DNA of 64,000 nt from Acidobacteriota bacterium (GTDB lineage: Bacteria > Acidobacteriota > UBA890 > WLXD01): positions 96,001 through 160,000 of the forward strand of contig CBDFKD010000002.1 in the NCBI GenBank assembly GCA_965248695.1, read 5' to 3'. Each line of letters begins with the position of its first letter. Within the stretch, counting starts at the first letter, position 1. Below are positions 3,217 through 62,927 of this stretch, piece after piece. A program made the translations under genes and the position numbers. The notes beneath the pieces are model-generated. The model was not told the DNA's origin. It worked only from the letters and a program-made list of their open reading frames with translations, and did not search any database.

Positions 3217-3401
3217 TGACCTGCCCCAAGTGTTTGGGCCACTTCGTAACTCATAGAATCGGTACTGGCAAGAGATTGTTGGAGCTGGCGAAGCGGAGCG
3301 TAGCCGGCTGCAACAACGTCGCTTCGGGTGCAGGCGGTCGATAGCCCAACGAGCTATGGGGCCGCACCTGGTTGTACTGGCGGCGCCAGCGGTGCACCAA
3401 G
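3217..3401 (-). mobile_element. Duplicated right-end fragment (185 bp) of IS407-group element IS-A
   Basis: Matches 6902-7086; starts with IR TGACCTGCCCCAAG; interrupted at 3402 by IS-B. Confidence 0.92.
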
Positions 3402-11220: not shown

Positions 11221-11344
11221 TTCGACGGCGACGGCATCCCTCTACCTGTTAGTACGCCAGGGCGCGGAAAGCGGTTTGCCGACCTGCTAAGGTGCTGGCC
11301 CTCTACTGTCCACGGGCGCGCAGCTCGGCAGGCCGGAGACCACG

Positions 11345-11842
11345 ATGAGGCAAGTGCTGGACCGTGCCGTGCTCCGTCGGTGCGCTGACCTGCTCCTGCC
11401 GACGGAGCTGTCGGCTCTGGAGCTGGACGCCGCGGTGGACGCGTTCTTGCGATGGGTACGCGGCTATCGTGCGGATGCCGATATGGATCACGGCTACGGC
11501 TTCACCCGCCTACGTGAGACCGACGCATCGCCCGCGGGCGGCTACGCCCGAGATCTCGAGGCGCTCGATGCCACGGCTCGGCGTGACCACGGCGGTGCCC
11601 TCGTGTCGCTCGACGATGAGACCTTGCTAGACCTCTTGAGCACAGCGATCGAGAGCGCCGTGCCGGAAGACGGCGGGATGTCGACACGGCCCGACGCCGG
11701 ACACGTCGTCGTGGGGCTGATGACGCATTTCTTCCGCAGTCCCGAGGCGGCGGATCGATGCTACGGAGTTCACATCCGCAGGGAGATCTGCCGCGGCCTG
11801 TTCACCGATCTCGATGGCCTCGAGCCACGGGCGAACGACTGA
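11345..11842 (+). CDS. Gluconate 2-dehydrogenase subunit 3-like accessory protein
   Basis: Small protein overlapping the start of a GMC oxidoreductase; pattern of LDATARR..GGALVSLD and FFRSPEA. Confidence 0.6.
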   Translation: MRQVLDRAVLRRCADLLLPTELSALELDAAVDAFLRWVRGYRADADMDHGYGFTRLRETDASPAGGYARDLEALDATARRDHGGALVSLDDETLLDLLSTAIESAVPEDGGMSTRPDAGHVVVGLMTHFFRSPEAADRCYGVHIRREICRGLFTDLDGLEPRAND

Positions 11843-13425
11843 TGCGCGTGGTGCAGGCCGACGTTTGCGTTATCGGCGGTGGCATTACCGGTGCGATGAC
11901 AGCGGCGAAGTTGAGCCAGGAGACCGACGCCACGATCACCGTCGTTGAAGCCGGTTCGAAGCTGTTCGACCTCGAGAACCGGTTCGAGTATCGCCAGCGC
12001 AGCCTCGCCTACGGAGAGAACGCGTGGCCCGGCGACCACATTCCCGATCAGGCCGGCGAAGGCGTGATCTCGCGCACGATGGCCGTGGGCGGCTCGGCGC
12101 TGCACTGGGGCGGCGTGGTGCCGCGATTCTCGCGTGAGGACTTCGACGTCCGATCGCGCTACGGGGTCGGCTACGACTGGCCGATCAGCTTCGCTGACCT
12201 GGAGCCGTTCTACTGCGAGGGTGAGCGCCTGATGGGCGTGGCAGGCGAGCAAGGCAGCGCCGGTGAGGATCCGCGCTCGGAGCCCTACCCGATGCCGCCG
12301 CACCCGCTGAACTCCAACCTGCGGATCTACCGCGACTGGGCGGCTGCTGCTGAGATCCCCTTTTGGACCATGCCAGCGGCGAAGAACACCGAGCCGTACG
12401 ACGGGCGCATGATCTGCCAGCGCTGCGATACCTGCATCATCTGCCCGACCGGAGCCAAGTACTCGCCCGACTTCACGTTCAAGCGATTGCTCGACGACGG
12501 CGCCATTGATCTGGTGCCACGCACGCTTGTCCGCCGACTCGACGTGGACACCGACAGCACACGCATCACGCAGGCGCGAGGGGTCGACCGGGACAGCGGC
12601 GAAGAGCTGCGATTCGAGGCCGATGTGTTCGTGCTGGCGGCCGGCTACGCCTGGTCGCCACACCTGTTGCTGCTGTCGGCCAGCTCCAGATTTCCCGATG
12701 GTCTGGCCAACAGCTCCGGGTTACTGGGTCGACATATGGCAGGGCATCGTCCGGTAAGCGCGATGATCGAGATTCCGCATCGGGTCTACCCGGGTGTGAA
12801 CGGCTTCAACACCCTGCTCAGCCGCATGTTCATGCGGCCGCCGCTGGACGAGCCGTATGTGCGCCACGATCTGCGCATCTTCGAATCAACCTACCGACGC
12901 CAGCCGCGCCTGCGCGATGACGCCGGCCGTTTGCTGATCGGCGACGCCGTAATGCGGGACTGGCGAGCGCGCACCCAGGTCGGCACGGCGCGCCTACGCG
13001 CCTACTACGACGTGATCCCCTCGCCCGATAGTCGTCTGCAACTCGATCCGAGCAACACCAATGCCTGGGGCGATCCGATGCCCCGCATCGAGATGGCAGA
13101 TCACGACGACACCGTCAGGTTGCGTCAACACACGCAGGCACAGATCCACGAAGTGTTCGATCGCCTGGTGCAGGCGGGGCGTGGCAAGATCCTGACGACG
13201 AGCACCGGAGGCTTTCTGGATCACCCGTGCGGTGGTTGTCGGATGAGCGACGACCCGGCGACGGGCGTGACCGATCCTCATGGCCGCGCCTGGGACCACG
13301 ACAATCTGTTCGTCGCCGGGGCGCCGACGTGCGTCACCGCCGGCTGCACCAATGGCACCAACACCTTCGTGGCCCTGACGCTGCGAACAGCCGCTGAGAT
13401 CTCGCGCCAGCTGCGCTCGCACTGA
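11842..13425 (+). CDS. GMC family FAD oxidoreductase
   Basis: VIGGGITG FAD motif, VGGSALHWGG, CQRCDTC.ICP, DHPCGGCRM, NGTNT; start overlaps upstream stop (TGATG). Confidence 0.9.
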   Translation: MRVVQADVCVIGGGITGAMTAAKLSQETDATITVVEAGSKLFDLENRFEYRQRSLAYGENAWPGDHIPDQAGEGVISRTMAVGGSALHWGGVVPRFSREDFDVRSRYGVGYDWPISFADLEPFYCEGERLMGVAGEQGSAGEDPRSEPYPMPPHPLNSNLRIYRDWAAAAEIPFWTMPAAKNTEPYDGRMICQRCDTCIICPTGAKYSPDFTFKRLLDDGAIDLVPRTLVRRLDVDTDSTRITQARGVDRDSGEELRFEADVFVLAAGYAWSPHLLLLSASSRFPDGLANSSGLLGRHMAGHRPVSAMIEIPHRVYPGVNGFNTLLSRMFMRPPLDEPYVRHDLRIFESTYRRQPRLRDDAGRLLIGDAVMRDWRARTQVGTARLRAYYDVIPSPDSRLQLDPSNTNAWGDPMPRIEMADHDDTVRLRQHTQAQIHEVFDRLVQAGRGKILTTSTGGFLDHPCGGCRMSDDPATGVTDPHGRAWDHDNLFVAGAPTCVTAGCTNGTNTFVALTLRTAAEISRQLRSH

Positions 13426-35734: not shown

Positions 35735-36694
35735 CTAGTGGCCTGTAACCGGGGACTCGATGGCGTCGCGCAGCACCGCGGCCTCGCCGCGCTCGTTGAT
35801 CAGACGCTGTATGTAGGCCACCAGCTCGCCCCGTCGGGAGATCAATGTCTCGAGCTGGGGGGAGTTGAGATACTCCCGCACCGCAGACCGAATCTCGTCG
35901 TCCGTCAGCTGTTGCAGAAGGGCCCACGAGGCACGCGAACAGGAAGCGAACTTGTCGGCGTCCCGCAGGTCGTCGTGTTCCTGGAAAGCACGGGTGTGAT
36001 CGATCATCCACAGCTTCCAGTCGGCGTCGAACAGCAGATTCCCGGTGTTTCGGTCATCGTTGAAGATCAGCGTGTCGAACAACCGCATCGCGTTCATCTG
36101 GCGGATCCAGGTCCGGGCCACCGGTGGCTCGATCCCCTGCTCCAAACGGTCGGCTTCCGACAACCCCCCCTCGACCCAGAGCTGCACGCTGGCGGGCCGC
36201 CCGCGGATCATGCGGCAGACCGTCGGGGGCACGTTGTCGAGACGAAACAGCCGCGCCAGCGCGTAGGCGGCACATTGGCCCTTGTAGCTGTCGTGATAGA
36301 AGCGGAAGCGCCGCCCGAACATGCGTAGGTTGCGCCTGGCCTCGTCGATGGTGTGCACCGCCGCCCGGGCGCTGACGCCACCGCGGTCCAATACGGCACG
36401 CTGAAGCCCCGTCGTGCCGGCTCCGAACGCACGCACTGAAGCCACTTCTGCCTGCTGCAGAAACTCGACCGCCTCGGCATGGCTGCGAAACGGCAGCGCT
36501 TGGCCGTCGGCACCTCGCCACAGGGGCGACGCTTCGACTTCGCCTTGCGAGCCCGGCATGCCCACCGTTCGTGGCGCCCGCCCCGGCGCCAACGGAGCCG
36601 CCGCTGGCTTCCCCGACGTCACGACCGTGCCGACAAGAAAGGCCGCAACGAAAAGCGCCGGACGCCGGCCGGGCCAGGGAGGAAGGGTGGTCAT
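35735..36694 (-). CDS. Predicted secreted atypical kinase-fold protein (PI3/PI4-kinase / HipA-like catalytic motifs)
   Basis: Signal-peptide-like N-terminus; AAY.LAR, VPPTV, FDTLIFNDDRNTGNLL, IDHTRAF. Confidence 0.7.
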   Translation of the reverse strand: MTTLPPWPGRRPALFVAAFLVGTVVTSGKPAAAPLAPGRAPRTVGMPGSQGEVEASPLWRGADGQALPFRSHAEAVEFLQQAEVASVRAFGAGTTGLQRAVLDRGGVSARAAVHTIDEARRNLRMFGRRFRFYHDSYKGQCAAYALARLFRLDNVPPTVCRMIRGRPASVQLWVEGGLSEADRLEQGIEPPVARTWIRQMNAMRLFDTLIFNDDRNTGNLLFDADWKLWMIDHTRAFQEHDDLRDADKFASCSRASWALLQQLTDDEIRSAVREYLNSPQLETLISRRGELVAYIQRLINERGEAAVLRDAIESPVTGH

Positions 36695-36890
36695 GCGATC
36701 CTCGTCGAACAGAGGTCGGGAGTCTAGCAGGCACGCCGCCAGCGGAGAGGTCGCACGAACCGACCCCGCCACAGCGCTCCGCACCGAGTAGCCGGTGACG
36801 CCCGTGTTTGCACCGCCCTTTGACAAATCGCGGTAGCCTAGGCTAAACACGAGAGATCTTCGGTCCCCGAGTCGAGGAGGTACCCATCTC

Positions 36891-38057
36891 ATGCCATTTT
36901 CGCGTCGCGCGCTGTTCGGCGGCCACGCTGCAGCCGGCAGCGGCCCGTCGGGTGCGCTGATCGCTGCTCGTGGCCGTGAAGCTCTGGTCGACGAGCTCTG
37001 GCCCAACTCCCGAGATGCGGCGGTCGTGCCGCCGCCGCCGAACGGCGAGATCCGTCTGAGCAGCAATGAGAACCCGCTGGGGCCCGGCGAACGAGCGCTC
37101 GACGCGGTTCGAGAAGCGTTCCACGACGCCAGCCGATACCCCGACAACACCAGCCCGGGCATGTCGGATCTACAGTCCGCCCTGGCTGCGGCCAACGACG
37201 CCCGCCCCGAGCACGTGGTGCTCGGCGCCGGATCGGGGGAGTTCCTCAAGAACGCCGTCCAGGCGTTCACCTCCAAGACCCGGCATCTGGTCACCGCGAC
37301 TCCGACCTATCGGAGGTCGGAGCAAGTGGCAAGGTACCTGGGAGCCGCAGTAAAGGCGATTCCAGTCGACGCCAGCGGCCAGCTGAACCTCGGCGCGATG
37401 GCAGAAGCGTGTCGCGGAGCCGGGCTCGTCTTCGTGTGCAATCCGAACAACCCGACCGGGACGGTGCACTCGGCAGAAGCGATCGCTGAGTTCACAGAGC
37501 GCGTGCGGCACATTTCGCCGGACACGGTGATTCACTTCGATGAGGCCTACCACGAGTACGTTACCGACCCCGGCTACCGCTCAGCTCTGTCGCTGGCACT
37601 GTGGACACCGAACGTCTTCGTCACCCGCACATTCTCAAAGGTGTACGGGATGGCGGGGCTGCGTATCGGCTACGCCGTAGGCCACCGCGAAGTGATCGCC
37701 GAGCTGTCACGTTACGGATTGCCGGTCAACACCAACAACGTCGGCCTTGCCGCGGCCTACTCGACGCTGCACGATCCGGGGCGCTTGGAGCGCGAGATCA
37801 AGCGCAACGCCGAGGCCCGGCAATTCACCGTCGACTTCTTCACGAACGGTGGCTATGAGGTGCTCGAGTCCAACGCGAATTTCATCTTCGTGAATATCCG
37901 CCGGCCGGCGGCGGAGATGCGTAGGGCCTGCCAGGAGCACGGCATCCGCATCGGTCGGGACTTCCCGCCGATGGAAAAGACCCACGCGCGGATCTCGATC
38001 GGGACCATGGAAGAGATGCAGCGGGCCACCGAGGTATTCACCGAGGTGCTGGCATGA
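36891..38057 (+). CDS. HisC-like class I/II PLP aminotransferase with twin-arginine N-terminus
   Basis: SRRALF; LSSNENPLGP, CNPNNPTG, DEAY, RTFSKVYGMAGLRIGY. Confidence 0.88.
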   Translation: MPFSRRALFGGHAAAGSGPSGALIAARGREALVDELWPNSRDAAVVPPPPNGEIRLSSNENPLGPGERALDAVREAFHDASRYPDNTSPGMSDLQSALAAANDARPEHVVLGAGSGEFLKNAVQAFTSKTRHLVTATPTYRRSEQVARYLGAAVKAIPVDASGQLNLGAMAEACRGAGLVFVCNPNNPTGTVHSAEAIAEFTERVRHISPDTVIHFDEAYHEYVTDPGYRSALSLALWTPNVFVTRTFSKVYGMAGLRIGYAVGHREVIAELSRYGLPVNTNNVGLAAAYSTLHDPGRLEREIKRNAEARQFTVDFFTNGGYEVLESNANFIFVNIRRPAAEMRRACQEHGIRIGRDFPPMEKTHARISIGTMEEMQRATEVFTEVLA

Positions 38058-41084: not shown

Positions 41085-43603
41085 CTAGCCCTGAATCGAA
41101 TCCACCAGCGCGGCGATCTCCGCGCTGCCAACAAGGGCTGCGAAGTCCGGCTCGGCGGTGATCAACGCGGCGTCGGAAAGCCCGTATTCCGCTGCCCGGC
41201 CCAGCCACTCGAGCGCAGCGCCGTGATCACCTCGCCTCGCCTCGAGGCGCGCGAGCTGATAGGTCGTATCCACCGTGTCCGGATGCGCCTCGCCGAGGAG
41301 ACGTAGCTCGATTTCGAGAGTTTGCCGATAAAGAGCATTGGCCTCATCGAACCGACGCTGATCGCGAAACAACGTCGCCAGGTTGTACATCGACCACTGC
41401 GTGCGGATGTGTTCCCCACCGAGGACATCGCGACGAAGCTCGAGGGTTTCTCGTAGCCACGGTTCGGCTTCGTCATAGCGACCATCCTTCTGATACGCCT
41501 CCCCCAGCAGGTTCATCGACTCCAACGTATCCGGATGTCCAGCGCCGAGCGTGCGCCTGGCTACCGCGATGCTGGGCGCCATGATCGCAGCGACCTCGTC
41601 GTAGCGCTCTCGATAAAAGAACGTCAGCGCCAGGACGTACTCCGTGGTCAGCGTGTAGCGGTGCTCCGCCCCGAGGATGCGCCGGCGCCCGTCAAGCGCC
41701 TCGCGAGCGCGAGACTCGGCCTCCTCATACCGACCGAGGCTGTTGTTCACCGATGCGAGATTGTGGATCAACGTAAGCGTCGCGGGGCGGTCCGCATCGT
41801 CGATGCGCCGCAACCCGGCCAGCGACTGGCGATACAGGCGGTCAGCATCCTCGAACCGCCCCTGATTCTGATTTACGGCCGCCAGGGTGTTGATTGCTCT
41901 CAGCGTGGCCTCGTGATCATCACCGACCACTCGGCGCAGGGTCTCGACGACGCCCTCCAAGCCCGCTGCAGCGTCGTCGTACCGACCCTGTCCACTCTGC
42001 GCCAGTGCCACATAGCGCATCGACTCCAGCGTTTCGAGGTGATCATCTCCCAGCGCGATCCGCTGCAGCTCCAGCGTCGCGGCCGCGAGCTGCTCGGCAA
42101 GCTCATAGCGCCCTCTCTCGACGTGAAGCGCTACCAGATCGGCCATCGAGGCAAGCGTCTCCGGCGCGTCTATCCCCAGCAGGTCGCGCCGCGACGACAG
42201 CGCCTGTTCCAAAAGCGGAACCGCCGACTCGTACAATCCTAGCCTGGAATACACATCGCCCATCGTCGCCATCAGCTGCGCTTGTGTCAGCGGCTGACCG
42301 CGCAGCTCGGTCGAGATCCGCGCCACACCCTGGTCGAGGATCTCTCGCGCCGTGATTGCGTTGCCCAGCGCCTCGCTCGGCGCCGAGACCTCGAACAACC
42401 CGGTCAGAAAGCTCGATACTTCGCGAGCCGTCTCGGCTTCGCGATTCGCCCGATCTCGCTCACGCGCGATGCGAGCGGTTTGCACGCCCATGGCGATCCC
42501 GAAGCCGATCAGCATGACGGTCAGCACGGCGGCGGCGGCAACGCCGATTCGGTGTCGGCGCGCGAACTTTCGCAGACGATATGCTGCGCTCGGCGGCGTC
42601 GCCTCGACCGGCTCGTCAGCCAGGTAGCGGCCGATGTCGGCAGACAGATCGGCCGGCGAGCCGTAGCGGCGCGAGCGATCCTTCGCCATCGCCTTCATGG
42701 TGATCCAGTCGAGATCCCCGCGTAGCTCGCCAACCAGCCGCATCGGATCGGTCTGGCGTCGAGCGGCGGCGGTGACCGACGCCTCACCCAGGCTGCTGAC
42801 GCGCGTGCTCGGCTTCGACGGCTCCTCGTCGCGGATGCGTCGATGGATCTCGAGCAGGCCGGCCTCGCGCAGCTCGCGCGGGTCGAACGGCAACGCCCCG
42901 ACGAGCAGCTCGTACAGCACGACCCCGAGCGCGTAGACATCTGTCCGCGTGTCGATGCCCTGTGGGCTCATCTCAGCCTGCTCAGGGCTCATGTACTCCG
43001 GGGTCCCGATCAGCTGACCGAGCTCGGTGAACACCGAGCGCTCAGTGAGCCGTTGAGCAGTTGCCTTGGCAACGCCGAAGTCGATGATCTTCGGAGCCGC
43101 TTCACCGTCGCGGATCGCCACCAGCACGTTGGACGGCTTGATGTCGCGGTGAATGATTGCTTTGTGGTGCGCATGCTGAACGCCATCGCATACGCGCTGC
43201 AGCAGCTCCAGTCGCTCCCTTACGCTCAGCCGATTGCGGTCGCAGTGCACGTTGATCGGGATTCCCTCAACGTACTCCATGACGAAGTACGGTCGCCCGG
43301 CCTCGGTTGCTCCGGCGTCGAACACCTTCGCGATACAGGGATGATCCATCATCGCCAGCGCCTGCCGCTCGGCCTCGAAGCGCGCCACCACCTGTTTAGT
43401 GTCCATGCCGTGCTTGATCGTCTTCAGCGCCACACGGCGGCGCACGGCGCCAGCTGTTCGGCCAGGTAGACGTCACCCATGCCGCCTTCGCCGAGCTTCT
43501 GCAGGATCCGGTAGGGTCCGATCGTTTCCGGGACCTCGAGCGGCGACGCCGAGGCCGCCGTCGGGTGATCGGGGGGCGCGGTCGGGTCCGTGGGGTCGGT
43601 CAT
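41085..43603 (-). CDS. Ser/Thr protein kinase with TM helix and TPR repeats, carrying a 1-bp frameshift near 43446
   Basis: LGEGGMGDVY in one frame; VALK, HRDIKPSN, DFG, GTPEYMSPE and TPRs in the next. Confidence 0.85.
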
Positions 43604-43748
43604 TGCTGGAGCCTGCGCAAGCCTGAGTTGTGTCATCGGGCGCCGGCGCTCATCTTACCCGCGCAACACACGGTGGCCGAAAGTAGCACGTCCCCGATGG
43701 CTGTCCCATCGACGACTAGTGGCCACTAGACTATGTCCTGGTGATGCG

Positions 43749-49598: not shown

Positions 49599-49754
49599 CG
49601 CCGAAGTATATGCTTTGGGCCGCCGCGGTCCCCGGCAGCTCGCCGGGCCACACGGCCAGACCGCGGTACAGTGCGGCCGTCCGCCGCCCGAGTCGTCTGA
49701 AGCGACCGCACGGCGCGCCCTCAGCACACCAAGCTACCGCTCCCGGAGCCGATC

Positions 49755-52312: not shown

Positions 52313-54132
52313 GCCAGGGGCGGTTGCGGGCGACGGTTCCGGCGTCACGCGTACTGCTGACGATCGCCGTGGCGCTGTTCGTTCCCATCGGCGGGTCCGT
52401 CGGGGCGCCCGCGAGGTCACCGCTCCGCGCTGACTCGGGAGATGCAGAATCGGCGCTCGCTTCGCTGATCGAAGAGGTGGTCGCGTTTCGTGGCGCCGAC
52501 CGCAGCCTGCCGCTTCCCGAGGGGGCAGATTCGCGCTACGAGAACCGTCTCGACGGTGTCTCGCTGGTGCGATTCGACGAAGAGCTGGCCACGACGCAGA
52601 GCTTCCGCCAACGGCTGAGCGACATCGATCTGGACGAGCTGGAGTCGGACACCGCGATAGACGCGCGCATCCTCTCCATCCAGCTACGCGACCGCGCCAA
52701 CGAGTTGATCCACCGTGGGCACCTTATGCCCATTGGCAGCCGCTACGGGTTTCATTTCGGCTTCGCCGGCGCCCCCGAAAGCGACACGTTCCGCGACGTC
52801 GAGAACTACGATCGCTACGTCGCGCGACTGCAATCGTTCGGGGCCCATGCACACGGCCAGATCGCGCTGATGCGCGCCGGCATCGCCGCCGGACTGGTCC
52901 TCCCGTCTGCCGTCCTGACGGGATACGAGAGCACCGCGAGCGTGCATCTGGCGGACCATCCGCGCCAGAGCGGCTTCTGGTCGCCCTTCGAGCGCATGCC
53001 CGACTCGATCGACCCTGCAGATCGCCAGCGCCTGAGCCGCGACGGCGAAGCGGCGATTGTCGACTCGGTAATCCCGGGCTACCGGGCACTGTTCGAGTTC
53101 CTGCGCGACGAGTACGTCCCCGCCGGCCGCGCCACGCTCGGGGTCACGGACTTGCCCGGAGGGCGCTCCTATTACGCCCATCGGGTGCACATGTACACCA
53201 CCCTCGACCTGACGCCGCGCGAGGTGCACGAAATCGGCCTCCAGGGCGTTGCCACGATCCTCGCAGCGATGGAAACGATCATGGGCGAGGTCGGCTTTAC
53301 GGGAAGCCATCTGCAGTTCGTCGAGCATCTGCGGACCGAGCCGCGCTTCTATGTCGACACGGAGCGTGACTATCTCGCCGCCGTAGCCTACGCCGCAAAG
53401 CAAATGGAGGGCCATCTACCCGAGCTCTTCGGATTGCTGCCGCGGACACCCTACGGTGTGCGCGCGATTCCGGCACATGTGGCCCCGCGTCACTCGGCTG
53501 GCTACTACGACCGCGGCGACGACGACGGAACGCGCGCCGGCTGGATCAACATCAATACGTCCCAGCTGACCAGCAGGCCGCTATTCGTAGCCCGTGCGCT
53601 CGCATACCACGAGGGCGTTCCGGGTCATCACCTGCAGATCATGCTCACACGCGAGAACGAGCTTCTGTCCGACTTTCGGCGCAGCTCCGGCATCACCGTG
53701 TTCACCGAGGGCTGGGGCCTGTATGCGGAGAAGCTCGGCATGGAGGTAGGCCTCTACGAGGATCCCTACGATCGTTTCGGTATGTGGAGCTATCAGATCT
53801 GGCGCGCCTGTCGGCTAGTCGTCGATACCGGGATGCACGCCCTCGGCTGGACGCGGGCGGAGGCAATCGCCTACATGGCCGAGCACACCGGGATGGCACT
53901 CGATACGGTCACCGCGGAGATCGATCGGCACATAACCGAACCCGGCCAGGGACTCGCATACACCTTCGGCGAGTTGAAGATCACCGAGCTGCGGCAGCGC
54001 GCCAGTGAGCGCCTTGGCGACCGGTTCGACCTGCGCGCATTCCACGACGTGGTGCTGGGAAACGGCGCCCTACCGCTGTCCATTCTCGAGGAGGTCGTCG
54101 TGGCCTGGATCGAGGAGACACCCGGAGCATGA
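52309..54132 (+). CDS. DUF885 family protein (metallopeptidase-like)
   Basis: HEGVPGHH, EGWGLYAE, RACRLVVDTGMH, FDLRAFHD. Confidence 0.88.
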   Translation: MSQGRLRATVPASRVLLTIAVALFVPIGGSVGAPARSPLRADSGDAESALASLIEEVVAFRGADRSLPLPEGADSRYENRLDGVSLVRFDEELATTQSFRQRLSDIDLDELESDTAIDARILSIQLRDRANELIHRGHLMPIGSRYGFHFGFAGAPESDTFRDVENYDRYVARLQSFGAHAHGQIALMRAGIAAGLVLPSAVLTGYESTASVHLADHPRQSGFWSPFERMPDSIDPADRQRLSRDGEAAIVDSVIPGYRALFEFLRDEYVPAGRATLGVTDLPGGRSYYAHRVHMYTTLDLTPREVHEIGLQGVATILAAMETIMGEVGFTGSHLQFVEHLRTEPRFYVDTERDYLAAVAYAAKQMEGHLPELFGLLPRTPYGVRAIPAHVAPRHSAGYYDRGDDDGTRAGWININTSQLTSRPLFVARALAYHEGVPGHHLQIMLTRENELLSDFRRSSGITVFTEGWGLYAEKLGMEVGLYEDPYDRFGMWSYQIWRACRLVVDTGMHALGWTRAEAIAYMAEHTGMALDTVTAEIDRHITEPGQGLAYTFGELKITELRQRASERLGDRFDLRAFHDVVLGNGALPLSILEEVVVAWIEETPGA

Positions 54133-54133
54133 C

Positions 54134-55417
54134 GTGATTGAACCCGAGACACCGACCGACGACCGCGACCGGCTACGCGCGCTCTGGGCGCTGGAGATTC
54201 TCGACACCCCGACCGAAGAGCGCTACGACCGTATCGTCAGGGTGGCCGGACTGACCCTCGAGATGCCCATCGCCTATCTGTCGTTCGTCGACGAGAACCG
54301 TCAGTGGCTAAAGGCGAACATCGGCATGCCGCTTCGCGAGACAGATCGAGATATCTCGTTCTGCGGCCACACCATCCTGGGAGATCGTCCGTTGGTCATA
54401 CCCGACGTGGCGAAAGATGCGCGGTTTCACGACAATCCGATGGTGGTCGGAGATCCCTTCATTCGCTTCTATGCAGGCATACCGTTACGAAGCGCCGACG
54501 GACACAACGTAGGCACGCTCTGCGTCGCCGATCGTCAGCCCCGTAGCTTGTCGGACACTTCGTTGGAGCTTCTCGCGGAGCTCGCCGCGCTTATCGAGCG
54601 GGAGTTGCAACTGGTCGAAGTGATCGACGCGCAACACCGCTTGCTCGAGATCCAGACGACGCTGGCCGAGACTCGCCAGCATATGGCCGAGGAGCTTGCG
54701 AAGGCGGCAGGCTACGTGCGCGGGTTGCTACCGGCGCCCTCCGACGGCGACATCCGCGCTGACTGGCGCCACCTGCCATCCGCCCAGCTGGGCGGTGACA
54801 TCTTCGACTACTACGCGCTCGACGATCACCGGACGGCGATGTACCTGCTCGACGTCGCCGGGCACGGAGTCGGATCGGCGCTGCTGTCGGTCTCGGTGAT
54901 GAGCGTCGTGCGGTCACGGTCGCTCCAGCGAGCTGATTTCGCCGAGCCCGCCGAGGTTCTCGCCGGTCTGAATCGCGAGTTCCGCATGACGGAGCACGAC
55001 AACAAGTTCTTCACCATGTGGTACGGCGTCTACGACGCCCGGACGCAGACACTCACCTACGCCAACGGCGGACATCCGCCTCCGCTCCTGATCACCGACC
55101 GGGCCAGCGGTGGCAACGTGGTGAAGCTGCAGGACTCCGGCCTGATTGTCGGAGCGCTGCCGGACGCTAGCTACGCGTCGAGCACACTGCCGATAGCGGA
55201 GCCGTCATCGCTATACCTGTTCAGCGACGGCGTCTACGAGATTTTCCCGTCCGGGGACGACGACTGTGAGCACATGCTCGGCTACGACGGGTTCGCCGAG
55301 ATACTCACGTCGCAGGGGGGCGCCGACTTGGACGCGACCATCGGGCGTCTACGCGAGTACGGTGGCGGCGGCCCGTTCGACGACGACGTGTCGATCTTGC
55401 ACCTGCGGCTCGGTTAG
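54134..55417 (+). CDS. GAF + SpoIIE/PP2C (RsbU-like) phosphatase
   Basis: GAF (LEILDT..EERYDRI, IRFYAGIPL); GGDIFD, DVAGHG, FSDG, DDVS. Confidence 0.88.
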   Translation: MIEPETPTDDRDRLRALWALEILDTPTEERYDRIVRVAGLTLEMPIAYLSFVDENRQWLKANIGMPLRETDRDISFCGHTILGDRPLVIPDVAKDARFHDNPMVVGDPFIRFYAGIPLRSADGHNVGTLCVADRQPRSLSDTSLELLAELAALIERELQLVEVIDAQHRLLEIQTTLAETRQHMAEELAKAAGYVRGLLPAPSDGDIRADWRHLPSAQLGGDIFDYYALDDHRTAMYLLDVAGHGVGSALLSVSVMSVVRSRSLQRADFAEPAEVLAGLNREFRMTEHDNKFFTMWYGVYDARTQTLTYANGGHPPPLLITDRASGGNVVKLQDSGLIVGALPDASYASSTLPIAEPSSLYLFSDGVYEIFPSGDDDCEHMLGYDGFAEILTSQGGADLDATIGRLREYGGGGPFDDDVSILHLRLG

Positions 55418-55463: not shown

Positions 55464-56975
55464 CTAGTTGATGCCCACGGTCAGCTTGCGGATCGGTATC
55501 GCGAACATGAAGAACAACGCCCCTGTCGCGATCACGACCATCGCCACCGTGCTGAACAACTCCGCCACCGGTAGAGCGTCCATGTAGCCAGCCGCGAGGC
55601 CCGCGATCAGGTTGCCCAGTGCCGTACCCATGAACCAGATGCCCATCATCTGGCCCTGTAAGCGGCGCGGCGAGAGCTTCGTCGTGGAGCTCAACCCAAC
55701 GGGGCTCAGGCACAGCTCCCCGACGGTGTGAAAGAAGTAGGTCACCACCAGCCACATGGGGCTGACCTGGCCCTCGGTGACGAACTGCGATCCCCAGGAA
55801 AGCACCAGAAAGCCGATTCCGAGCAACACCAGGCCGAGGCCAAACTTGATCGGGATCGACGGGTTGCGAGCACCCAACCGTACCCAGAGCCCACCGACCA
55901 CCGGCGCCAGCAGGATGATGAACGTCGGGTTGACGTTCTGTAGCAGCGAGGCGGGCATTTCCCAGCCGAAGATCACTCGGTTCGTGAAATCGCGCGCGAA
56001 CAGGTTGAGCGACGAGCCGGCCTGCTCGAACCCCGACCAGAACATTGCCGCCCCGATAAACAGCAGGAAGATCGCGAAGACGCGCTTACGCTCCGTGACG
56101 TCGCGGCAAACGAACCCGATGACACCGGCGAAGTAGGCGATCGACACGGCGGTGATGAGGACCCCGGTGATCTGGGCGAAGCCCACCAGCGTGAGCGCAA
56201 TCAGGCCGCTGGCAGTGAGCAGAAAGAAGGCTGCCGTGAGCGCCACCACCACGCCGACGCCGGTGAAGAACTGTCGCACCGACGCCGCGTAGACCTCCTG
56301 CGGGCGCGCCGCTTCCGGCAGCTCACCGCAGCCCAGCAAGTGTTTCTTGCCGGCGACGTACTGAATGATGCCGCAGGTCATGCCGATACCGGCGGCACCG
56401 AACCCCAGATGCCAGTTATAGCCCTCTCCGAGGAACGAGCAGATCGTCGGTCCCAGTACCGCCCCGATATTGATCCCCATGTAGAAGACAGAGAAGCCCG
56501 CGTCGCGCCGAGCACCCCCCTCGGGGTACAGGTCGCCGACGATCGCCGACACGTTCGGCTTCAGGAGACCGGTGCCGATGACGATCAGGATCAGCCCGAG
56601 ATAGAACGTCGGAACCGCCGGAATCGCCATCGAGAAGTGGCCCAGCGCGATGATGATGCCGCCGTACAGCACCGCCTGTCGCTGACCGATGAGCCGATCG
56701 GCGATCCAGCCGCCTGGCAACGCCAGGGCGTAGACGCCAAACACGTACAGCCCGTAGATCGCAGCCGCGGTGGGCGTATCGAGTCCGAAACCGCCGCGCA
56801 CCGAGTCGGTCAGGTACAGGATGAGCAGCCCGCGCATCCCGTAGAAGCTGAACCGTTCCCACATCTCGGTGAAGAACAGCGTCGACAAACCGCGCGGATG
56901 CCCGAAGAACGTCCCTCCGACAGCTTCAGCGCTCAAAATCGCCCTCCGATCGTGACCCCCGGGGTGGTCGCGCAC
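55464..56975 (-). CDS. POT/PTR proton-dependent oligopeptide transporter
   Basis: GHPRGL, EMWERFSFYGMR, FYMGINIG, GELCLSPVG. Confidence 0.93.
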   Translation of the reverse strand: MRDHPGGHDRRAILSAEAVGGTFFGHPRGLSTLFFTEMWERFSFYGMRGLLILYLTDSVRGGFGLDTPTAAAIYGLYVFGVYALALPGGWIADRLIGQRQAVLYGGIIIALGHFSMAIPAVPTFYLGLILIVIGTGLLKPNVSAIVGDLYPEGGARRDAGFSVFYMGINIGAVLGPTICSFLGEGYNWHLGFGAAGIGMTCGIIQYVAGKKHLLGCGELPEAARPQEVYAASVRQFFTGVGVVVALTAAFFLLTASGLIALTLVGFAQITGVLITAVSIAYFAGVIGFVCRDVTERKRVFAIFLLFIGAAMFWSGFEQAGSSLNLFARDFTNRVIFGWEMPASLLQNVNPTFIILLAPVVGGLWVRLGARNPSIPIKFGLGLVLLGIGFLVLSWGSQFVTEGQVSPMWLVVTYFFHTVGELCLSPVGLSSTTKLSPRRLQGQMMGIWFMGTALGNLIAGLAAGYMDALPVAELFSTVAMVVIATGALFFMFAIPIRKLTVGIN

Positions 56976-57051
56976 GTGCCGGGCGCGGAGCAGCGGCCGC
57001 CGCCTCGGTCGGCCCGAGAGCCTATCATCCCCCTACCGGGCCGCGCCGATA

Positions 57052-58338
57052 TCAATCCGGCGCCTTGGGCAGGTCGATGTCATGAGCCCGCTGCCGAGTC
57101 AACTTCTCGACATCGATGCCAGTCGCCGTCTTGAGCTGTTCGAGCATCGCCACGGCGCTGCCGGTGAGGTTGTTGATGTACTTGGGAATCCCGCTGCCAT
57201 CGCCGCCATCGACGATCGTCAGCTTGTCGACCGTAAGGTTGTCAGCGATCACCCGCGTAACCTTGTCGAGCAACTCCGGCATCAACTGGATCAGGAACAG
57301 GTCGCGGGTCTCCCCGTCTTGCCACTGTTCCCGCATCGACTCGACGGCTTGAGCGGTGGCACGTCCGTCTTCGAGGATTCTCGCCGCGTTGCCCTCGGCC
57401 TCCAACATAAGCGCCTGCCGCCGAGCCCGCGCCGGCGCCACGGTGTCGGCCTCCTCGCGCTTGGCGCTGAGCTCAGCGCGCGTACCCTGAAGCTCGACTT
57501 CCTGCTCGGCTCGCGCGATGGCTCCGGCGACTTCTGCACGCTGCTCCGCCCTGTTCGACTCGGCTCTGCGCTCAGCACGCCGAACGGCGAGCGCTTTCTC
57601 GGAATCGACTACAGCCAGCTCGGCTTCGATCTCGGCTTGGCGCCCGACACGCTCCTGCTCGGCGGCAACGCTTCGAGCTTCCGCCTCAGCACGCGCTTCG
57701 GCGATTCGCGCGTCGCGACTGACCTCGGCTACCTTCTTGCGACCGATTGCCTCGAGGTAGCCTTGATCGTCGTAGACGCTCTCGATCTGGAAGATATCCA
57801 GAACAATGCCGAGCTGACTCAGGCCCGCTCGAGCCCGGTCAGTTACCTGTTCCGCTAGCTGCAATCGCTGCGCGTTGGCCTCTTCGGGGCTGACGGTGGC
57901 GAGCACGCCGCGCAGCGCTCCCTCGATGGTCTGCTGGGCCGTCGTCACCACGGTGTCGAAGTTCTTGCCCAGGAAACGCTCCACTGCGGCCTCGAGCCCT
58001 TCCTCCTCGCGACCTGCCAGCTTGATGTTGGCATGACCCTCGATGCTGACCGGGATCATCCCGGCGCACATCGCTTTGCCCAGGCGCAACTGGACAGGAT
58101 GGCTAGTCAGCGGTAGCCGTGCGACGGATTCCAGCAGCGGACGCCTGAAGCCCCGTCCGCCACGGATGATGCGGTAACCCGACGTCTTGCCATCGGCAGT
58201 GCGCCGCTGACGCCCGGCCAGCACCACGAGCTCATTCGGTTGGCAGATAACAATGTTCGACTTGATGAAAATGAGCACCAGGAGAGTACCCAGCGCCCCA
58301 AGCCCCAACGCAATACCCAGAATCTGTGCTTGCTCCAT
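57052..58338 (-). CDS. Flotillin / SPFH-domain protein
   Basis: N-terminal TM, SPFH domain (EGALRGV, GYLEAIG), Ala/Glu-rich coiled coil. Confidence 0.88.
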   Translation of the reverse strand: MEQAQILGIALGLGALGTLLVLIFIKSNIVICQPNELVVLAGRQRRTADGKTSGYRIIRGGRGFRRPLLESVARLPLTSHPVQLRLGKAMCAGMIPVSIEGHANIKLAGREEEGLEAAVERFLGKNFDTVVTTAQQTIEGALRGVLATVSPEEANAQRLQLAEQVTDRARAGLSQLGIVLDIFQIESVYDDQGYLEAIGRKKVAEVSRDARIAEARAEAEARSVAAEQERVGRQAEIEAELAVVDSEKALAVRRAERRAESNRAEQRAEVAGAIARAEQEVELQGTRAELSAKREEADTVAPARARRQALMLEAEGNAARILEDGRATAQAVESMREQWQDGETRDLFLIQLMPELLDKVTRVIADNLTVDKLTIVDGGDGSGIPKYINNLTGSAVAMLEQLKTATGIDVEKLTRQRAHDIDLPKAPD

Positions 58339-58375
58339 GGATCACCAGCCAGCCGTGCTAGGGGTCGAAACCGTG

Positions 58376-59813
58376 CTAGACGTTGAAATAGAGGGCGAAC
58401 TCGCCCGGATGGGGACGTAGGCGCACGAAGTCGACTTCGTGCGTGCGTTTGTGCGCGATATAGGTCTCGAGCAGATCGGGCGTGAACACGCCATCGGCTA
58501 CGAGAAACTCATGGTCGCTCTCGAGAGCATCGAGCGCGTATGCCAACGACCCGGGTGTCTTCTGGATCGCTTCGCCTTCCTCCGTCCCGGCGAGCTCGTA
58601 AATGTCCTTGTCGACTGGTGCCGGCGGTTCGATCTGGCGGCGAATGCCGTCCAGCCCCGCGAGCAACATCGCTGAAAACGCCAGGTACGGGTTGCCCGAC
58701 GGGTCGGGCGTTCTGTACTCGATGCGCTTCGCAGCCGCGCTCGATCCCAGCATCGGCACGCGGATGCAGGCGCTCCGATTCCCACGCGAGTACACCAGGT
58801 TGATGGGCGCCTCGTAGCCGGGCACCAAGCGCCGGTACGAGTTGGTGGTCGGATTGCACAGCGCGCAGAGGGCGGGCGAATGGCGCAAGAGACCGCCGAT
58901 GAAGTGGATCGCGGCGTCGCTGAGGCCAGCGTATCCGTCAGGGTCGTAGAACAGGTTGATGCCGTTCCGCCACAGACTTATGTGCACGTGCATTCCAGAG
59001 CCGTTCTCCTCGAACAATGGCTTGGGCATGAACGTGGCGGCTTTGCCATAGCGGCGCGCAACATTCTTGACGACGTACTTGAACTTCACGGCGTTGTCAG
59101 CCGCCTGCGTCAACGGAGCGTATCGGATTCCGATCTCGTTCTGGCCTGCCGACGCCACCTCGTGGTGGTGCAACTCCGCCCGCACGCCGACGCTGCGCAA
59201 CACGGTCGTCATTTTCGAGCGCAGATTGTGGTACGGATCCACCGGCGGCGCTGCGAAGTAGGCACCTTTCTGGGCTGCCCGATGCGCCAAGTTATTGGCG
59301 GCGCTGTCGCCCGTATTCCAGAAGGCTCCGTCGTTGTTGACGAAGTAGAAGCCGTGCTGGGTATCCTGGTCGTAGCGCAACGTCATCGAACAGGAAGAAC
59401 TCCAGCTCGGGACCGAAAAAGACCTCGTCGGCGATGCCCAGCGATCGCACCAGCTGTGCCGCCCTATGGGCGACGCCACGCGGGTCCCGCGTGTACGGCT
59501 TGAATCCGTTCGGGTCGACAATCTTGCAGAAGAACGACAGGGTCGGGTCGTCAAAGAACGGATCGCGCATCATCGTGCCCGGATCAGGGACCATGATCAT
59601 GTCGCTGTTGTCGATCGCCTGGAAGCCGCGCACAGACGAGCCATCGAGGCCGAGCCCATTGACGAACACGCCAGCATCGATCTCATCGATCGGCAAGGTC
59701 AGATGGTGCAGCGCTCCGAACAGGTCGACGAACTTCACATCGACGAACTCGATGTCGTGCTCCTCTGCGAAGAGGAATACGTCCCGCGCCGTCGTCGCTC
59801 GATCTCGTGGCAC
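58376..59813 (-). CDS. glnA: Glutamine synthetase type I, with a 1-bp frameshift at about 59380
   Basis: DGSSVRGF, GPELEFF in one frame; HHEVA, TFMPKP, NGSGMH, RLVPGYEAP, RSACIR, DKDIYEL in the next. Confidence 0.9.
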
Positions 59814-59816
59814 GGG

Positions 59817-60155
59817 TCAGCCTAGCGCCCGGTCGCCACGCTCACCGGTGGCCACCAGCACGACATCATCCAGGGCGGTGACAAACACGACTCCGAACCC
59901 GCCGGTATCGCGCGCCGCGCGCTCGATAGCGTCCACCGCCACCTCTACGAGCTCGTCGCGCAAGGCGATCTCGATGCGGACCTTTTGGAAAAGGGACACC
60001 TCGTGGACAACCCCACGGAACGAGTGCGCCTCCGCCCCCTCGGGGGCAGTGCCGAGAATATTCGTCGCCGTCAAGTGCTTGATCTGGGCTTCAAACAGAG
60101 CCTCTTTCACCGCCGGAAACTGCTGCGGCTGGACGATGGCCACGACCATCTTCAT
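59817..60155 (-). CDS. Divergent P-II family nitrogen regulator
   Basis: 112 aa in register with PII (MK..VAIV.P, VKEAL, T29, G35, R47-G48, K58, TGERG); between amtB and glnA. Confidence 0.82.
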   Translation of the reverse strand: MKMVVAIVQPQQFPAVKEALFEAQIKHLTATNILGTAPEGAEAHSFRGVVHEVSLFQKVRIEIALRDELVEVAVDAIERAARDTGGFGVVFVTALDDVVLVATGERGDRALG

Positions 60156-60174
60156 GTCGCTGTCGCTCCCGGAG

Positions 60175-61428
60175 TTAGTCGGTGATGAAGATCTGGAAGC
60201 CGCTGTACGACTCGACACCGTGCTCTTCCAGGTCGAGTCCACGCAGTTCGGTCTCCCGTGAGACCCGCAGTCCGATGGTCAGATCAATAAAGCGGAACAG
60301 GACCCACATGGCAATTCCTGTAAAGGCCACACATCCCAATATGCCGAGCGTCTGAATGCCGAGGCCGCCGACGCCGCCACCGTAGAACAGACCGTTGCGC
60401 GGTGCACCCAGTGCGGCTTGGCCGAAGACGCCGACCGCTAGCGTGCCCCAGACGCCAGCCATTCCGTGCACCGGAACGGCACCAACGGGATCATCGATCC
60501 GCAGTCGGTTTAGCCAATCGACACCGAATATCGCGATCATACCGGCGGCGGCACCGATATAGATGGACGCCCCATCGCTCACCACAGCACACGGTGCGGT
60601 GATGCCCACCAGGCCCGCAAGAGCGCCATTCAGAGCCAGCGCAAGGTCAGGCTTGCCGAACTTGACCCAGGCAGTGAACATGGCTGTCATCGATCCCGCC
60701 GCGCCCGCCAGGGTCGTGTTCATCACGATCCGCGCCACCAGATCAGGATCCTCCATACCGAGCGTGGAGCCGGCGTTGAACCCGTACCAGCCAAACCAGA
60801 GGAGAAAAACTCCAAGGGTCACCAGCGGGATGTTGTGCCCACCGATGAAATTCGCCGATCCATCAGGGTTGAATCGACCGATGCGGGGACCCAGCATCCA
60901 GGTCCCAACCAAAGCGGCAACCCCACCGACGGCATGCACGACGGTCGATCCGGCGAAGTCGTAAAAACCCAGCTGCGACAACCAGCCGCCGCCCCATACC
61001 CAGTGTCCTACCACCGGGTAGACGAAGGCGGTAATGGCGAACGAGTAGGCCAGGTAGGCGACGAAGCGCATGCGCTCGGCCACGGCGCCCGAGACAATCG
61101 TCGCGGCGGTACCGGCAAACACGGCCTGGAAGAACCAGAAAGCTGCTAACGGCAAAGTGTCTACGGGACTCTCGGCACCGACCATGAACCAGCCTGTGGT
61201 ACCGACGAACAGCCCTGCCGAGCCGTACATGATCGCGTAGCCGAACACGTAGTAGCCGAACGTCGCGAAGCAAAAGTCCATGAGGTTCTTCATCAGGACG
61301 TTGGCGGCATTCTTGGCGCGAATCAGACCCGCCTCGACCAGGCCGAAGCCCGCCTGCATCAAGAAGACGAGGATCGCCGCCATCAACACCCAGAGAGTGC
61401 TCAAGCCGTCGTGAAGCTCTGCCGCCAT
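60175..61428 (-). CDS. amtB: Ammonium transporter
   Basis: MQAGF..VEAG, SGAVAER, DFAGSTVVH, LWFGWYGFN, DDPVGAVPVHG (both pore His present). Confidence 0.95.
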   Translation of the reverse strand: MAAELHDGLSTLWVLMAAILVFLMQAGFGLVEAGLIRAKNAANVLMKNLMDFCFATFGYYVFGYAIMYGSAGLFVGTTGWFMVGAESPVDTLPLAAFWFFQAVFAGTAATIVSGAVAERMRFVAYLAYSFAITAFVYPVVGHWVWGGGWLSQLGFYDFAGSTVVHAVGGVAALVGTWMLGPRIGRFNPDGSANFIGGHNIPLVTLGVFLLWFGWYGFNAGSTLGMEDPDLVARIVMNTTLAGAAGSMTAMFTAWVKFGKPDLALALNGALAGLVGITAPCAVVSDGASIYIGAAAGMIAIFGVDWLNRLRIDDPVGAVPVHGMAGVWGTLAVGVFGQAALGAPRNGLFYGGGVGGLGIQTLGILGCVAFTGIAMWVLFRFIDLTIGLRVSRETELRGLDLEEHGVESYSGFQIFITD

Positions 61429-61530
61429 GCAGCCTCCCGGTCCGCGAGGGTGAGCGGTGAACGAATGCAGGCCCACCGTCGCCACTGCCGATGGCGCGAG
61501 TCAATCCGCCACGGGCGATAGCCCCGAGGC

Positions 61531-61559
61531 TGTGTACCGCATGCCATCACCGCTGTCAA
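61531..61559 (-). promoter_or_regulatory. Possible sigma70 promoter for amtB-PII-glnA
   Basis: TTGACA (61559-61554), 17-bp spacer, weak -10 TACACA. Confidence 0.3.
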
Positions 61560-61631
61560 AGCTCCGACTGCGGCACGGCAGCGGGACGAGAAAACCGCTA
61601 GCAGGCCGTGGTGCAGCGTCGTGCCTGTGTC

Positions 61632-62927
61632 TCAGCGTAGGACGCGCTCGACACGATCCTCGGGAAGGTAGCAATCGTAGGAACCGCCGATGCCACCGAT
61701 GTCGAAGATCGAGACCGGATCATCGACGCCCTTTACCTTTACTTTCAGCGCCCCGTCGACGCGCACCGGTGCGTCGATACGATCCAGCGTCTCCTGTGAC
61801 GCGAGGATCTGGCCTCCCATTGCCGTTGCCTCCAGGCGCGCTGCCCGATTCACCGCATTGCCGATGACGCTGTAGCTCATGCGCCGCTGCGAACCGATCG
61901 TGCCAGCGATAACGCTGCCAGTGTCGATCCCTATCCCCGCGGCGATCTCCGGCAATCCGTTGGCGCGGTTGCTAGCGTTGACCGTCGACATCGACAGCTG
62001 CATGTCGATAGCGCAGGCCACCGCCCGAGCTGCGTCGTCATTACCGGCGGTCGGCGCGCCGAACAGCGCCATGATCGAGTCGCCGACAAACTTGTCCACC
62101 GTCCCACAGTGGTCCTCGATCACTCCCACCATGACTCCGAAGTAGCTATTCAGCAGACCCACGACCTGCTCGGGTTCGAGTCGCTGGGCCAACGGCGTAA
62201 AGCCACGAAGGTCGGCCATGAGAATAGAGACCGTTCGCTCAGCGCCGCCAAGCTCCAGCTGTCCGGGCGACTGAAGCACGCTGTCGGCCACCTCCGCGGT
62301 GAGGAAACAACCGAGCGTGTCCTCGATGAAGCAATTGCGCACTTCGAGGTCTTCGTTTAGCGCCTCGGCGTGGCGCTTGGCAATCAGCAGGCTCTCCTGA
62401 AGCTCGGCTACCTCGCGAAGGTTGAGCTGATCCTCGGCCAGACGCGCCAGATCGCCCAGCGCCACCAGCTCGTCGGCGCCGAACTCGCGCGGGCGGCGAT
62501 CGGCGATGCACAGCGTGCCGACGCGGTGGCCCTCCGCCGTTGCCAGCGGATGCCCGGCGTAGAAGCGCAGATGCGGCGCGCCGACCACCAACGGATTGTC
62601 CCGAAAGCGCGGATCGTCGGCAGTATCGGGGACGATCAACGGTTGGTCGTGGAGGATCGTGTGTGAGCAGAACGAGATGTCGCGCGCAGTCTGTGGCGTG
62701 TCCAGCCCGCAGGACGACTTGAACCACTGCCGGTCCGCGTCGACCAGTGCGATGTAAGCGATCGGCACGCCGAACGCCTGGGAGGCGATCCTGGAAATAC
62801 GATCGAACCGCTGCTCCGGCGCAGTGTCGAGAATCTGCAGCGCATACAGAGCTGCCAACCGTTCGGTCTCGTCCTTGGGTATCGCAGCAGTGATCACTGA
62901 GGCTCCAGCGTCGACGTGAGCGCGCAT
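61632..62927 (-). CDS. GAF + class III adenylate/guanylate cyclase
   Basis: GAF; ADLRGFT, DKFVGD, GIDTG, GNAVNRAARLE. Confidence 0.9.
   Translation of the reverse strand: MRAHVDAGASVITAAIPKDETERLAALYALQILDTAPEQRFDRISRIASQAFGVPIAYIALVDADRQWFKSSCGLDTPQTARDISFCSHTILHDQPLIVPDTADDPRFRDNPLVVGAPHLRFYAGHPLATAEGHRVGTLCIADRRPREFGADELVALGDLARLAEDQLNLREVAELQESLLIAKRHAEALNEDLEVRNCFIEDTLGCFLTAEVADSVLQSPGQLELGGAERTVSILMADLRGFTPLAQRLEPEQVVGLLNSYFGVMVGVIEDHCGTVDKFVGDSIMALFGAPTAGNDDAARAVACAIDMQLSMSTVNASNRANGLPEIAAGIGIDTGSVIAGTIGSQRRMSYSVIGNAVNRAARLEATAMGGQILASQETLDRIDAPVRVDGALKVKVKGVDDPVSIFDIGGIGGSYDCYLPEDRVERVLR

Follow-up and report, generated by a model that had tools for sequence, protein, structure and literature searches.

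A GlnK-derived PII protein of Acidobacteriota that keeps its channel-plug loop and appears to have lost canonical effector sensing

Introduction

Few signal transducers are as widespread as the PII proteins, and the published accounts available to us treat the binding of adenine nucleotides and 2-oxoglutarate (2-OG) in the cleft between subunits as the basis of their function. Can a PII protein stay associated with an ammonium channel once the residues that line this cleft have been replaced? This question is raised by a gene, here termed PII*, within a 64,000-nucleotide stretch of an Acidobacteriota genome (the window; source genome G000, 5.89 Mb in two contigs and 96.4% complete). A first-pass annotation had described the gene as a non-canonical PII within an amtB-PII-glnA operon, responding to a different signal or acting as a ligand-blind subunit in heterotrimers.

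The PII* gene and its residues

PII* lies at 59817..60155 on the minus strand and is assigned as a GlnK-derived PII by its Pfam P-II match, by residue alignments and by an AlphaFold2 model with a pLDDT of 91.8. The reading frame is intact and open and encodes 112 amino acids from an MKM start common to all homologues, and the match to PF00543 (63.9 bits against a cut-off of 25) spans the profile from end to end (1-102 of 102), in keeping with the earlier description of an intact, full-length gene. A longer reading of 141 amino acids from a GTG at 60242 was rejected, as it runs into the end of amtB and is matched by none of the homologues. PII* falls far below the cut-offs of the NCBIfam GlnK and GlnB equivalogs (NF007946 and NF008111), with 59.6 versus 181 and 57.1 versus 202 bits. 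It nevertheless has the features of a GlnK, being co-oriented with an adjoining amtB and carrying R47 at the tip of a T-loop of canonical length.

Residues were called by alignment to solved 112-residue PIIs (3ncp, 2eg1 and 1ufl) together with two canonical acidobacterial PIIs, and every substitution listed in the first-pass annotation was present in these alignments. T29, G35, R47, G48, K58 and T103-G104-E105 (canonical 104-106) are retained, as are R60, G87 and G89. Positions 37-40 read APEG (A37, P38, E39, G40), position 46 is F and H51 stands in place of Y51; the B-loop has lost one residue and carries F and V at canonical 88 and 90 in place of D88 and K90, and at the C-terminus L and A occupy canonical positions 101 and 103. 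Across the nucleotide-site set G37, R38, Q39, D88, K90, R101 and R103, the last three of which we take to be nucleotide/effector-site residues, PII* carries A, P, E, F, V, L and A. Of the pair of 2-OG ligands, K58 is retained and Q39 has become E. As regards the modification of Y51 by GlnD that marks proteobacterial-type GlnB/GlnK, the residue is a histidine in PII* and the GlnD model TIGR01693 has no match in the 96.4%-complete genome. The alignments thus uphold the view of a non-canonical PII that has kept the R47-G48 loop tip and lost the canonical nucleotide and 2-OG residues.

The roles of these positions are described in the accessible portions of two reports (PMC6908673, PMC3198391), according to which K58 hydrogen-bonds Q39 in the ADP state, Q39 and K58 take part in 2-OG binding, the 2-OG carboxylate competes with E44 for K58, the B-loop serves in nucleotide binding and R47, at the apex of the T-loop, enters the Amt channel. 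From the replaced residues we infer that PII* probably no longer binds Mg-ATP, ADP or 2-oxoglutarate in the canonical manner.

Origin and conservation of the PII* clade

A word index of 5.8 billion proteins yielded 72 matches, 65 of which were aligned with the window protein (alignment A2); all share the altered motifs, at 48-87% identity. The remainder comprised a fragment (P0053), a 69-residue call of the frameshifted gene of genome G003 (P0067) and five proteins with canonical motifs (P0068-72). A 71-row table was made up of A2, the divergent sequences P0073, P0074, P0075 and P0079, and the copy of genome G308 (L126). When 1.84 billion cluster representatives were scanned in full with HMMER, 7,767 PII-like proteins passed E <= 0.001 and only six passed E <= 1e-30, and 24 of the top-ranked matches were inspected; the PII* group is rare among PII proteins. 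Most of the at least 595 genome-contig and at least 600 metagenome-contig stretches listed carry canonical PIIs, which does not bound the range of the family, and matches in the ESM Atlas are generic P-II clusters (0.87-0.88).

G37, R38, Q39 and D88 each occur in 0 of the 71 rows of the table and the one-residue deletion of the B-loop in all 71, as do R47, G48 and a lysine or arginine at position 58. A basic residue at position 90 persists in eight rows, all outside the two large subclades, R101 in two and R103 in 23. The T-loop is gapless within the subclade of the window protein, and five rows of the 71 lack one residue, at position 40.

The 71 rows fall on one side of a branch with an SH-aLRT support of 95, which stands at 79 when the trait columns (36-46, 83-90 and 100-102) are removed; in a more careful tree of a 79-row subsample the branch receives UFBoot 100 and SH-aLRT 98. 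As judged from aligned sequences, these trees show that the substitutions define a clade of single origin, derived from the acidobacterial amtB-glnK-glnA type of GlnK, the canonical sister group of which carries the motifs TNALG, GQQKG, GDGKIF and RIRTGERG. The same alignments show a T-loop base changed from GxGRQKG to GTAPEGAE or GTVANQ, a B-loop that has been shortened and stripped of its charged residues, and loss of R101, with the fold, K58 and the R47-G48 tip kept. Eight further proteins of the same GlnK type that lie outside the clade (P0078, P0080, P0083, P0087, P0089, P0090, P0094 and P0095) have T-loop bases and B-loops that are degenerate or lengthened in other ways, and the GlnK lineage around PII* seems prone to remodelling of the effector site.

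Selection on the gene is purifying. The dN/dS ratio of PII* is 0.10 between the window and the same-order relative G012 (locus L002; dS is about 1, near saturation), 0.19-0.25 among three related metagenome copies (L132, L133 and L134; dS 0.26-0.39, unsaturated) and 0.015 at a dS of 0.27 between the window and the same-genus genome G003, the lowest value among eight genes of the region. Several positions that are variable or different in canonical PIIs have become constrained in the family, namely Q12, L34 and R60 (100%), T31, N32, T36 and Q57 (98%) and Q11 (92%); acidic residues have appeared at the T-loop base (E39 in 68%, E42 in 83%) and the canonical E44 is gone. Given a clade of single origin under purifying selection, the changes in PII* are not decay, and a simple pseudogene was rejected at the level of the family (dN/dS 0.015-0.25). 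The substitutions are therefore conserved, as the first-pass annotation had proposed checking, and its contrary case, canonical nearest homologues with selection relaxed on this branch, is not what was found.

Might canonical sensing have been kept by other means? ATP or ADP, and perhaps 2-OG, could in principle be held through K58, R60, the backbone amides of a glycine-rich B-loop and, in many members, R103. T29, G35, K58, G87 and G89 are indeed retained, together with the 23 arginines at position 103 and the eight basic residues at position 90, and A. fulgidus GlnK2 has lost one effector yet binds nucleotides, according to the portion of the report available (PMC3198391). However, six canonical contact positions are altered together, every row lacks a B-loop residue and the base of the T-loop has switched from basic to acidic, and we consider this explanation improbable for the family. 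Early-branching members may still bind nucleotides, since it is among the 71 rows that R103 and the basic residue 90 survive in part.

The amtB-PII*-glnA-flotillin cassette

PII* sits within a cassette on the minus strand. Upstream, and separated from it by 19 nt, is the ammonium channel gene amtB (60175..61485; Pfam Ammonium_transp, 427 bits; TIGR00836, 452 bits), the true start of which may be an ATG some 19 codons into the open reading frame. The HMMER alignment of AmtB covers residues 28-427 with the motif residues of the family aligned, the twin pore histidines were identified by eye, and the C-terminal tail of AmtB at PII* loci is the same as that at canonical GlnK loci. Among solved chains, the window AmtB is closest to proteins of 644-661 residues named 'Ammonium transporter' (8qj3/8qpf and 6eu6; 285-287 bits), with E. 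coli AmtB at about 218 bits. Downstream, glnA begins 3 nt past the PII* stop codon; this type I glutamine synthetase (GS) gene (58376..59813) is recognised from two reading frames, 59292-59813 and 58376-59554, that match Gln-synt_N and Gln-synt_C and are separated by a +1 frameshift. A fourth gene, encoding a flotillin-like SPFH/Band_7 protein, follows at 57052..58338; it was assigned through Band_7 orthologues (L002, L125 and L126; Pfam Band_7, 74-88 bits) and by tblastn, in which the window flotillin was found directly after glnA at all four other genome loci. Its presence hints at a membrane-microdomain link for an AmtB-PII*-GS module. Upstream of amtB lies a GAF-adenylate/guanylate cyclase gene (61632..62927, minus strand), identified through Pfam on the G003 orthologue and synteny.

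The order amtB, PII*, glnA (GSI) and flotillin is shared by the window, L002/G012, L125/G316, L126/G308 and L127/G003. More widely, amtB lies directly upstream of PII* at nine of nine loci with upstream DNA, and a gene of the glutamine synthetase system adjoins PII* at eight of the ten loci with downstream DNA (GSI at five, GSIII at two and GlnE at one). Loci of the second subclade vary in what lies downstream: L132 has a type III GS gene in the same direction and L134 a convergent one, while L133 has glnE downstream of PII* and a divergent GSI gene upstream of amtB; no downstream GS gene was seen at the short loci L130 and L131. The canonical sister GlnKs also show the order amtB-glnK-glnA. 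The amtB-PII-glnA architecture is therefore ancestral, and the gene context of PII* is in itself no indication of a new function.

A scan of 56900-61750 for sigma-70 promoters gave no promoter-like sites, and no sigma-54 -24/-12 match upstream of amtB was seen by eye. The GC content of the cassette is 0.62 against 0.64-0.68 in the flanks, a difference too small to argue for transfer. Double-domain glutaminase genes of 662 and 686 amino acids (2284-4272 and 9897-11957) flank the cassette at L125 (G316:C80). In the region flanking the window cassette, a GAF-PP2C phosphatase gene (54005-55417) and the GAF-cyclase gene (61632-62927) have a similar N-terminal GAF part, and the cyclase, used as query at locus L210, aligned to the phosphatase gene (51% over 171 amino acids).

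The gaps of 19 and 3 nt and the Pfam and NCBIfam matches bear out the operon of the first-pass annotation as far as its gene order is concerned. That account had missed the frameshift in glnA, the membership of the flotillin gene and the loss of the cassette within the genus.

This arrangement raises the alternative that GS or GlnE is the main target, with PII* regulating either of them directly, or tethering AmtB to GS, and the channel plug being secondary. The proximity of GS-system genes at eight of ten loci, extending to GSIII and glnE in the second subclade, is consistent with such a role, as is the 3-nt spacing between PII* and glnA, and binding of GS by M. mazei GlnK1 through its T-loop has been solved, according to the accessible text (PMC10651883). 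Nevertheless, the same neighbours are found at canonical sister GlnKs, the GS-binding T-loop of the M. mazei protein is described in that text as helical (PMC10651883) whereas the T-loop of PII* is predicted to be a hairpin, and in G000 PII* and amtB are intact though glnA is broken. GS or GlnE as the principal partner is therefore decidedly unlikely.

PII, GlnD and GlnE across genomes

A search of G000 with PF00543 returned a single gene, PII* itself, and with no TIGR01693 match either, a canonical glnB, glnK or glnD was not found in this genome. Models of GlnD (TIGR01693) and GlnE (PF03710) had no match in G000, G003 or G012. PII* is also the sole PF00543 gene of G012 and of G316, the latter having a GlnD-model match of only 40 bits, while G308 encodes, besides PII*, a canonical PII adjoining a glnD-like gene, and glnE is present too. 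These inventories bear on the suggestion that PII* joins a canonical PII in heterotrimers, as their ligand-blind subunit. Such a partner is available in G308, which also has GlnE, but G000, G012 and G316, all 95-96% complete, have one PF00543 gene each. As PII* is the only PII of G000, the proposal fails there, barring a second PII in the unassembled ~4% of the genome, and as a general account it is highly improbable.

In a sample of 401 Acidobacteriota genomes, all at least 85% complete and including the unpublished G046 and G070 in the tally, 195 had a PII match of any kind and 206 had none. PII* carriers in this sample, with the 30 best loci read, were G000, G003, G012, G316 and G308. Any PII match was found in three of 25 relatives from the window's own order. 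PII-free nitrogen control seems to be common in the order of the window. G000 has, in addition, a second Amt gene (G000:C2:5122765-5126368; L129, L084), with a small membrane ORF and then a GS-like gene (447 amino acids) after it; no PII lies between the Amt and GS-like genes at this locus.

State of the cassette in the strain and genus

The frameshift in glnA results from a single additional base, giving TT on the gene strand, at 59379..59380 on the minus strand, located by alignment with L002 and G003; the L002 orthologue is an intact reading frame of 478 amino acids. The site is covered with no gaps by contigs of four runs from one sample, which may be the genome's own source. In G003 (L127, G003:C31:232000-251900) frame-breaking indels fall at 60004 in PII*, at 60871 and 61449 (near the 5' end) in amtB and at 59754 at the 5' end of glnA, and the flotillin gene is also broken. 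All that is left in G004 (L210, G004:C11) is a 5'-truncated flotillin (residues 66-428) beside a POT transporter gene, and the cassette was not found in the same-genus genomes G001 and G002. In G007 the POT and 3HCDH genes are adjacent with nothing between them, the missing stretch including the GAF-cyclase gene. Where the window and G003 align (51.3 kb), about three frame splits occur outside the cassette (some 47 kb of flanks) against at least five within its 4.4 kb. Reading frames of the two genomes also differ at about 35738-37306, 43445-43720 and 49620-49725, which may reflect additional frameshifts, or differing start sites, in one of the two assemblies.

Taken together, this pattern suggests recent loss of the module in this genus, with assembly error as the alternative. 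Between G000 and G003 the other cassette genes have dN/dS ratios of 0.06-0.075, and with values as low as these and that of PII*, any inactivation must be very recent. Because glnA is frameshifted and sister species have a damaged cassette or none, the activity of the PII* system in this strain is uncertain, and the module may be only partly active where its partner glnA is disrupted.

PII* of the window might itself be a relic, still open yet functionally dead within a cassette that is being lost. The recurrence of the glnA frameshift in contigs of four runs would fit, as would the frameshifts of G003 in PII*, amtB, flotillin and the 5' end of glnA, the lone truncated flotillin of G004, the absence of the cassette from G001 and G002, and a density of frame breaks far above that of the flanks. 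Yet PII* and amtB are intact in the window, the dN/dS ratios of 0.015 and 0.06-0.075 are those of constrained genes, and a systematic read error is possible in the runs behind the frameshift. A dead PII* is hardly probable even for this strain, and it would concern the strain, not the family.

Predicted structure and modes of control

AlphaFold2, supplied with a 66-row family alignment, places the PII elements of PII* in the expected order (pLDDT 91.8), and a Foldseek search with the model returned PII/GlnK structures for all top matches (TM 0.74-0.86). The T-loop is predicted as a two-stranded hairpin (residues 42-46 and 49-53) with R47-G48 at the turn and a pLDDT of 85 for block 41-50. In a control built from 66 aligned canonical relatives about as diverse as the family (mean column identity 66% versus 63%), residues 37-54 are coil, block 41-50 has a pLDDT of 52 and residues 43-45 fall below 50. 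The T-loop of PII* is thus predicted to be ordered, on the strength of one AlphaFold2 comparison. Prediction of a complex between AmtB (alignment A6) and PII* (A2) gave a score of 0.02 (mark, 0.32), which weighs neither for nor against an interaction.

The balance of evidence leans towards PII* being an AmtB-linked GlnK derivative that lacks canonical ATP/ADP/2-OG sensing and has a predicted pre-formed plug loop. Under this interpretation the T-loop would be locked as an extended hairpin; E39 and E42 may pair with K58 and R60 at the place usually taken by the nucleotide and by the 2-OG carboxylate and Gln39, so that an internal salt-bridge network would replace the effectors and fix the loop. 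PII* could then still dock on AmtB, with R47 entering the pore exit, without reading ATP, ADP or 2-OG. With the sensing pocket lost and the plug loop kept, control would have to come by some other route, which might be the stoichiometry of co-expression, the co-encoded GS system or a ligand at the remodelled and conserved cleft (Q11, Q12, T36, Q57 and S84). Among the considerations that count against this interpretation, a constitutive plug without a release signal makes little physiological sense, K58, R60, T29, G87 and G89 are still present, and the system may be disappearing from this genus.

A bolder form of the same interpretation holds that PII* is the first GlnK lineage to dispense with adenine nucleotides and 2-OG altogether, a self-locked plug that engages AmtB according to the state of the GS system (GSI, GSIII or GlnE) or to a novel ligand in the cleft with its many glutamines; this is a tentative proposal and we regard it with some doubt.

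Alternatively, PII* could be a re-tuned sensor, a ligand-gated regulator of AmtB or GS whose remodelled cleft binds another small molecule, such as glutamine, glutamate, a cation or another nucleotide. In line with this, the cleft has not drifted and has instead gained strictly conserved polar residues (Q11, Q12, T36, Q57, S84 and E39/E42), and the PII-like proteins SbtB, PstA and CutA bind other ligands, as stated in the accessible literature. However, the sequence points to no candidate ligand, the B-loop residues vary within a hydrophobic or small set (F/S/A/Y at 87, I/M/L/V/K at 89 and I/A/V at 90) and look like filling rather than recognition, and the AlphaFold2 T-loop is ordered without a ligand. 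We therefore hold re-tuning to be unlikely, and a plug uncoupled from the canonical effectors remains the preferred interpretation.

If that interpretation is true, a GlnK clade with a dismantled cleft would separate the channel-plug function of PII from its sensor function, providing a naturally occurring test of what, within PII signalling, the control of AmtB requires, and a possible route to a new input. In its bolder form, the proposal would have ammonium uptake directly linked to the capacity for assimilation in bacteria otherwise without a PII/GlnD/GlnE network. A caution for annotation also arises, as PII* genes are labelled 'nitrogen regulatory protein P-II' though their motifs make canonical sensing unlikely.

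Comparison with known systems

A literature search, with subscription journals outside its coverage, found no description of an amtB-linked PII without the nucleotide-site residues. Among the nearest known systems is the GlnK-AmtB pair of E. coli and archaea, with which PII* shares the PF00543 fold, a length of 112 amino acids, a 19-residue T-loop with the R47-G48 tip and an operon with amtB. It differs from these GlnKs in lacking G37, R38 and Q39, D88 and K90, and R101 (in the window protein, R103 too), in having H51 and in that no GlnD was found. Canonical acidobacterial GlnK (for example L099-L106), the sister group of PII*, has a similar style of N-terminal sequence and the same amtB-PII-glnA order but keeps GxGQQKG, GDGKIF and RIRTGERG; its AmtB is 44-50% identical to the PII*-linked AmtB.

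Among solved structures, the best-scoring relative of PII*, and the characterised protein nearest to it, is A. fulgidus GlnK2 (3ncp/3ncq/3ncr; 70 bits), which is likewise amt-linked and has lost one canonical effector. In the part of the report available it is singled out as the one PII with no sensitivity to 2-OG at all (PMC3198391). The same text has GlnK2 still binding ATP and ADP and keeping the canonical B-loop and arginines (PMC3198391), residues that PII* lacks. On the aligned motifs, PII* goes beyond GlnK2 in that the nucleotide residues are lost as well. M. mazei GlnK1 bound to GS (8tge) provides, in the accessible account, a precedent for a PII acting directly on a co-regulated GS (PMC10651883), and PII* is encoded 3 nt from glnA. 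In contrast, GlnK1 is described there as a canonical effector-binding PII whose T-loop binds GS as a helix (PMC10651883).

Departure from the canonical effector site within the PII fold has occurred elsewhere. SbtB, which plugs its transporter according to the portion available (10.1101/2023.08.10.552651), shares this departure with PII*, as do PstA/DarA, CutA and PII-NG, the last said in the consulted part of its source to have evolved from GlnB/GlnK (PMC7726332). What defines PII-NG is its occurrence in clusters with cation efflux genes of the czcABC type (Sant'Anna 2009, cited in the accessible text of PMC7726332), and assignment of PII* to it was rejected as the neighbours here are amtB, glnA and flotillin, with no czc context. 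PII* was likewise rejected as an SbtB, PstA or CutA, since it nests within GlnK and is amtB-linked. SbtB, PstA/DarA, CutA and PII-NG form separate families with partners of their own (SbtA, czc efflux genes and c-di-AMP targets), whereas PII* lies inside GlnK, matches PF00543 from end to end and has kept amtB as its neighbour.
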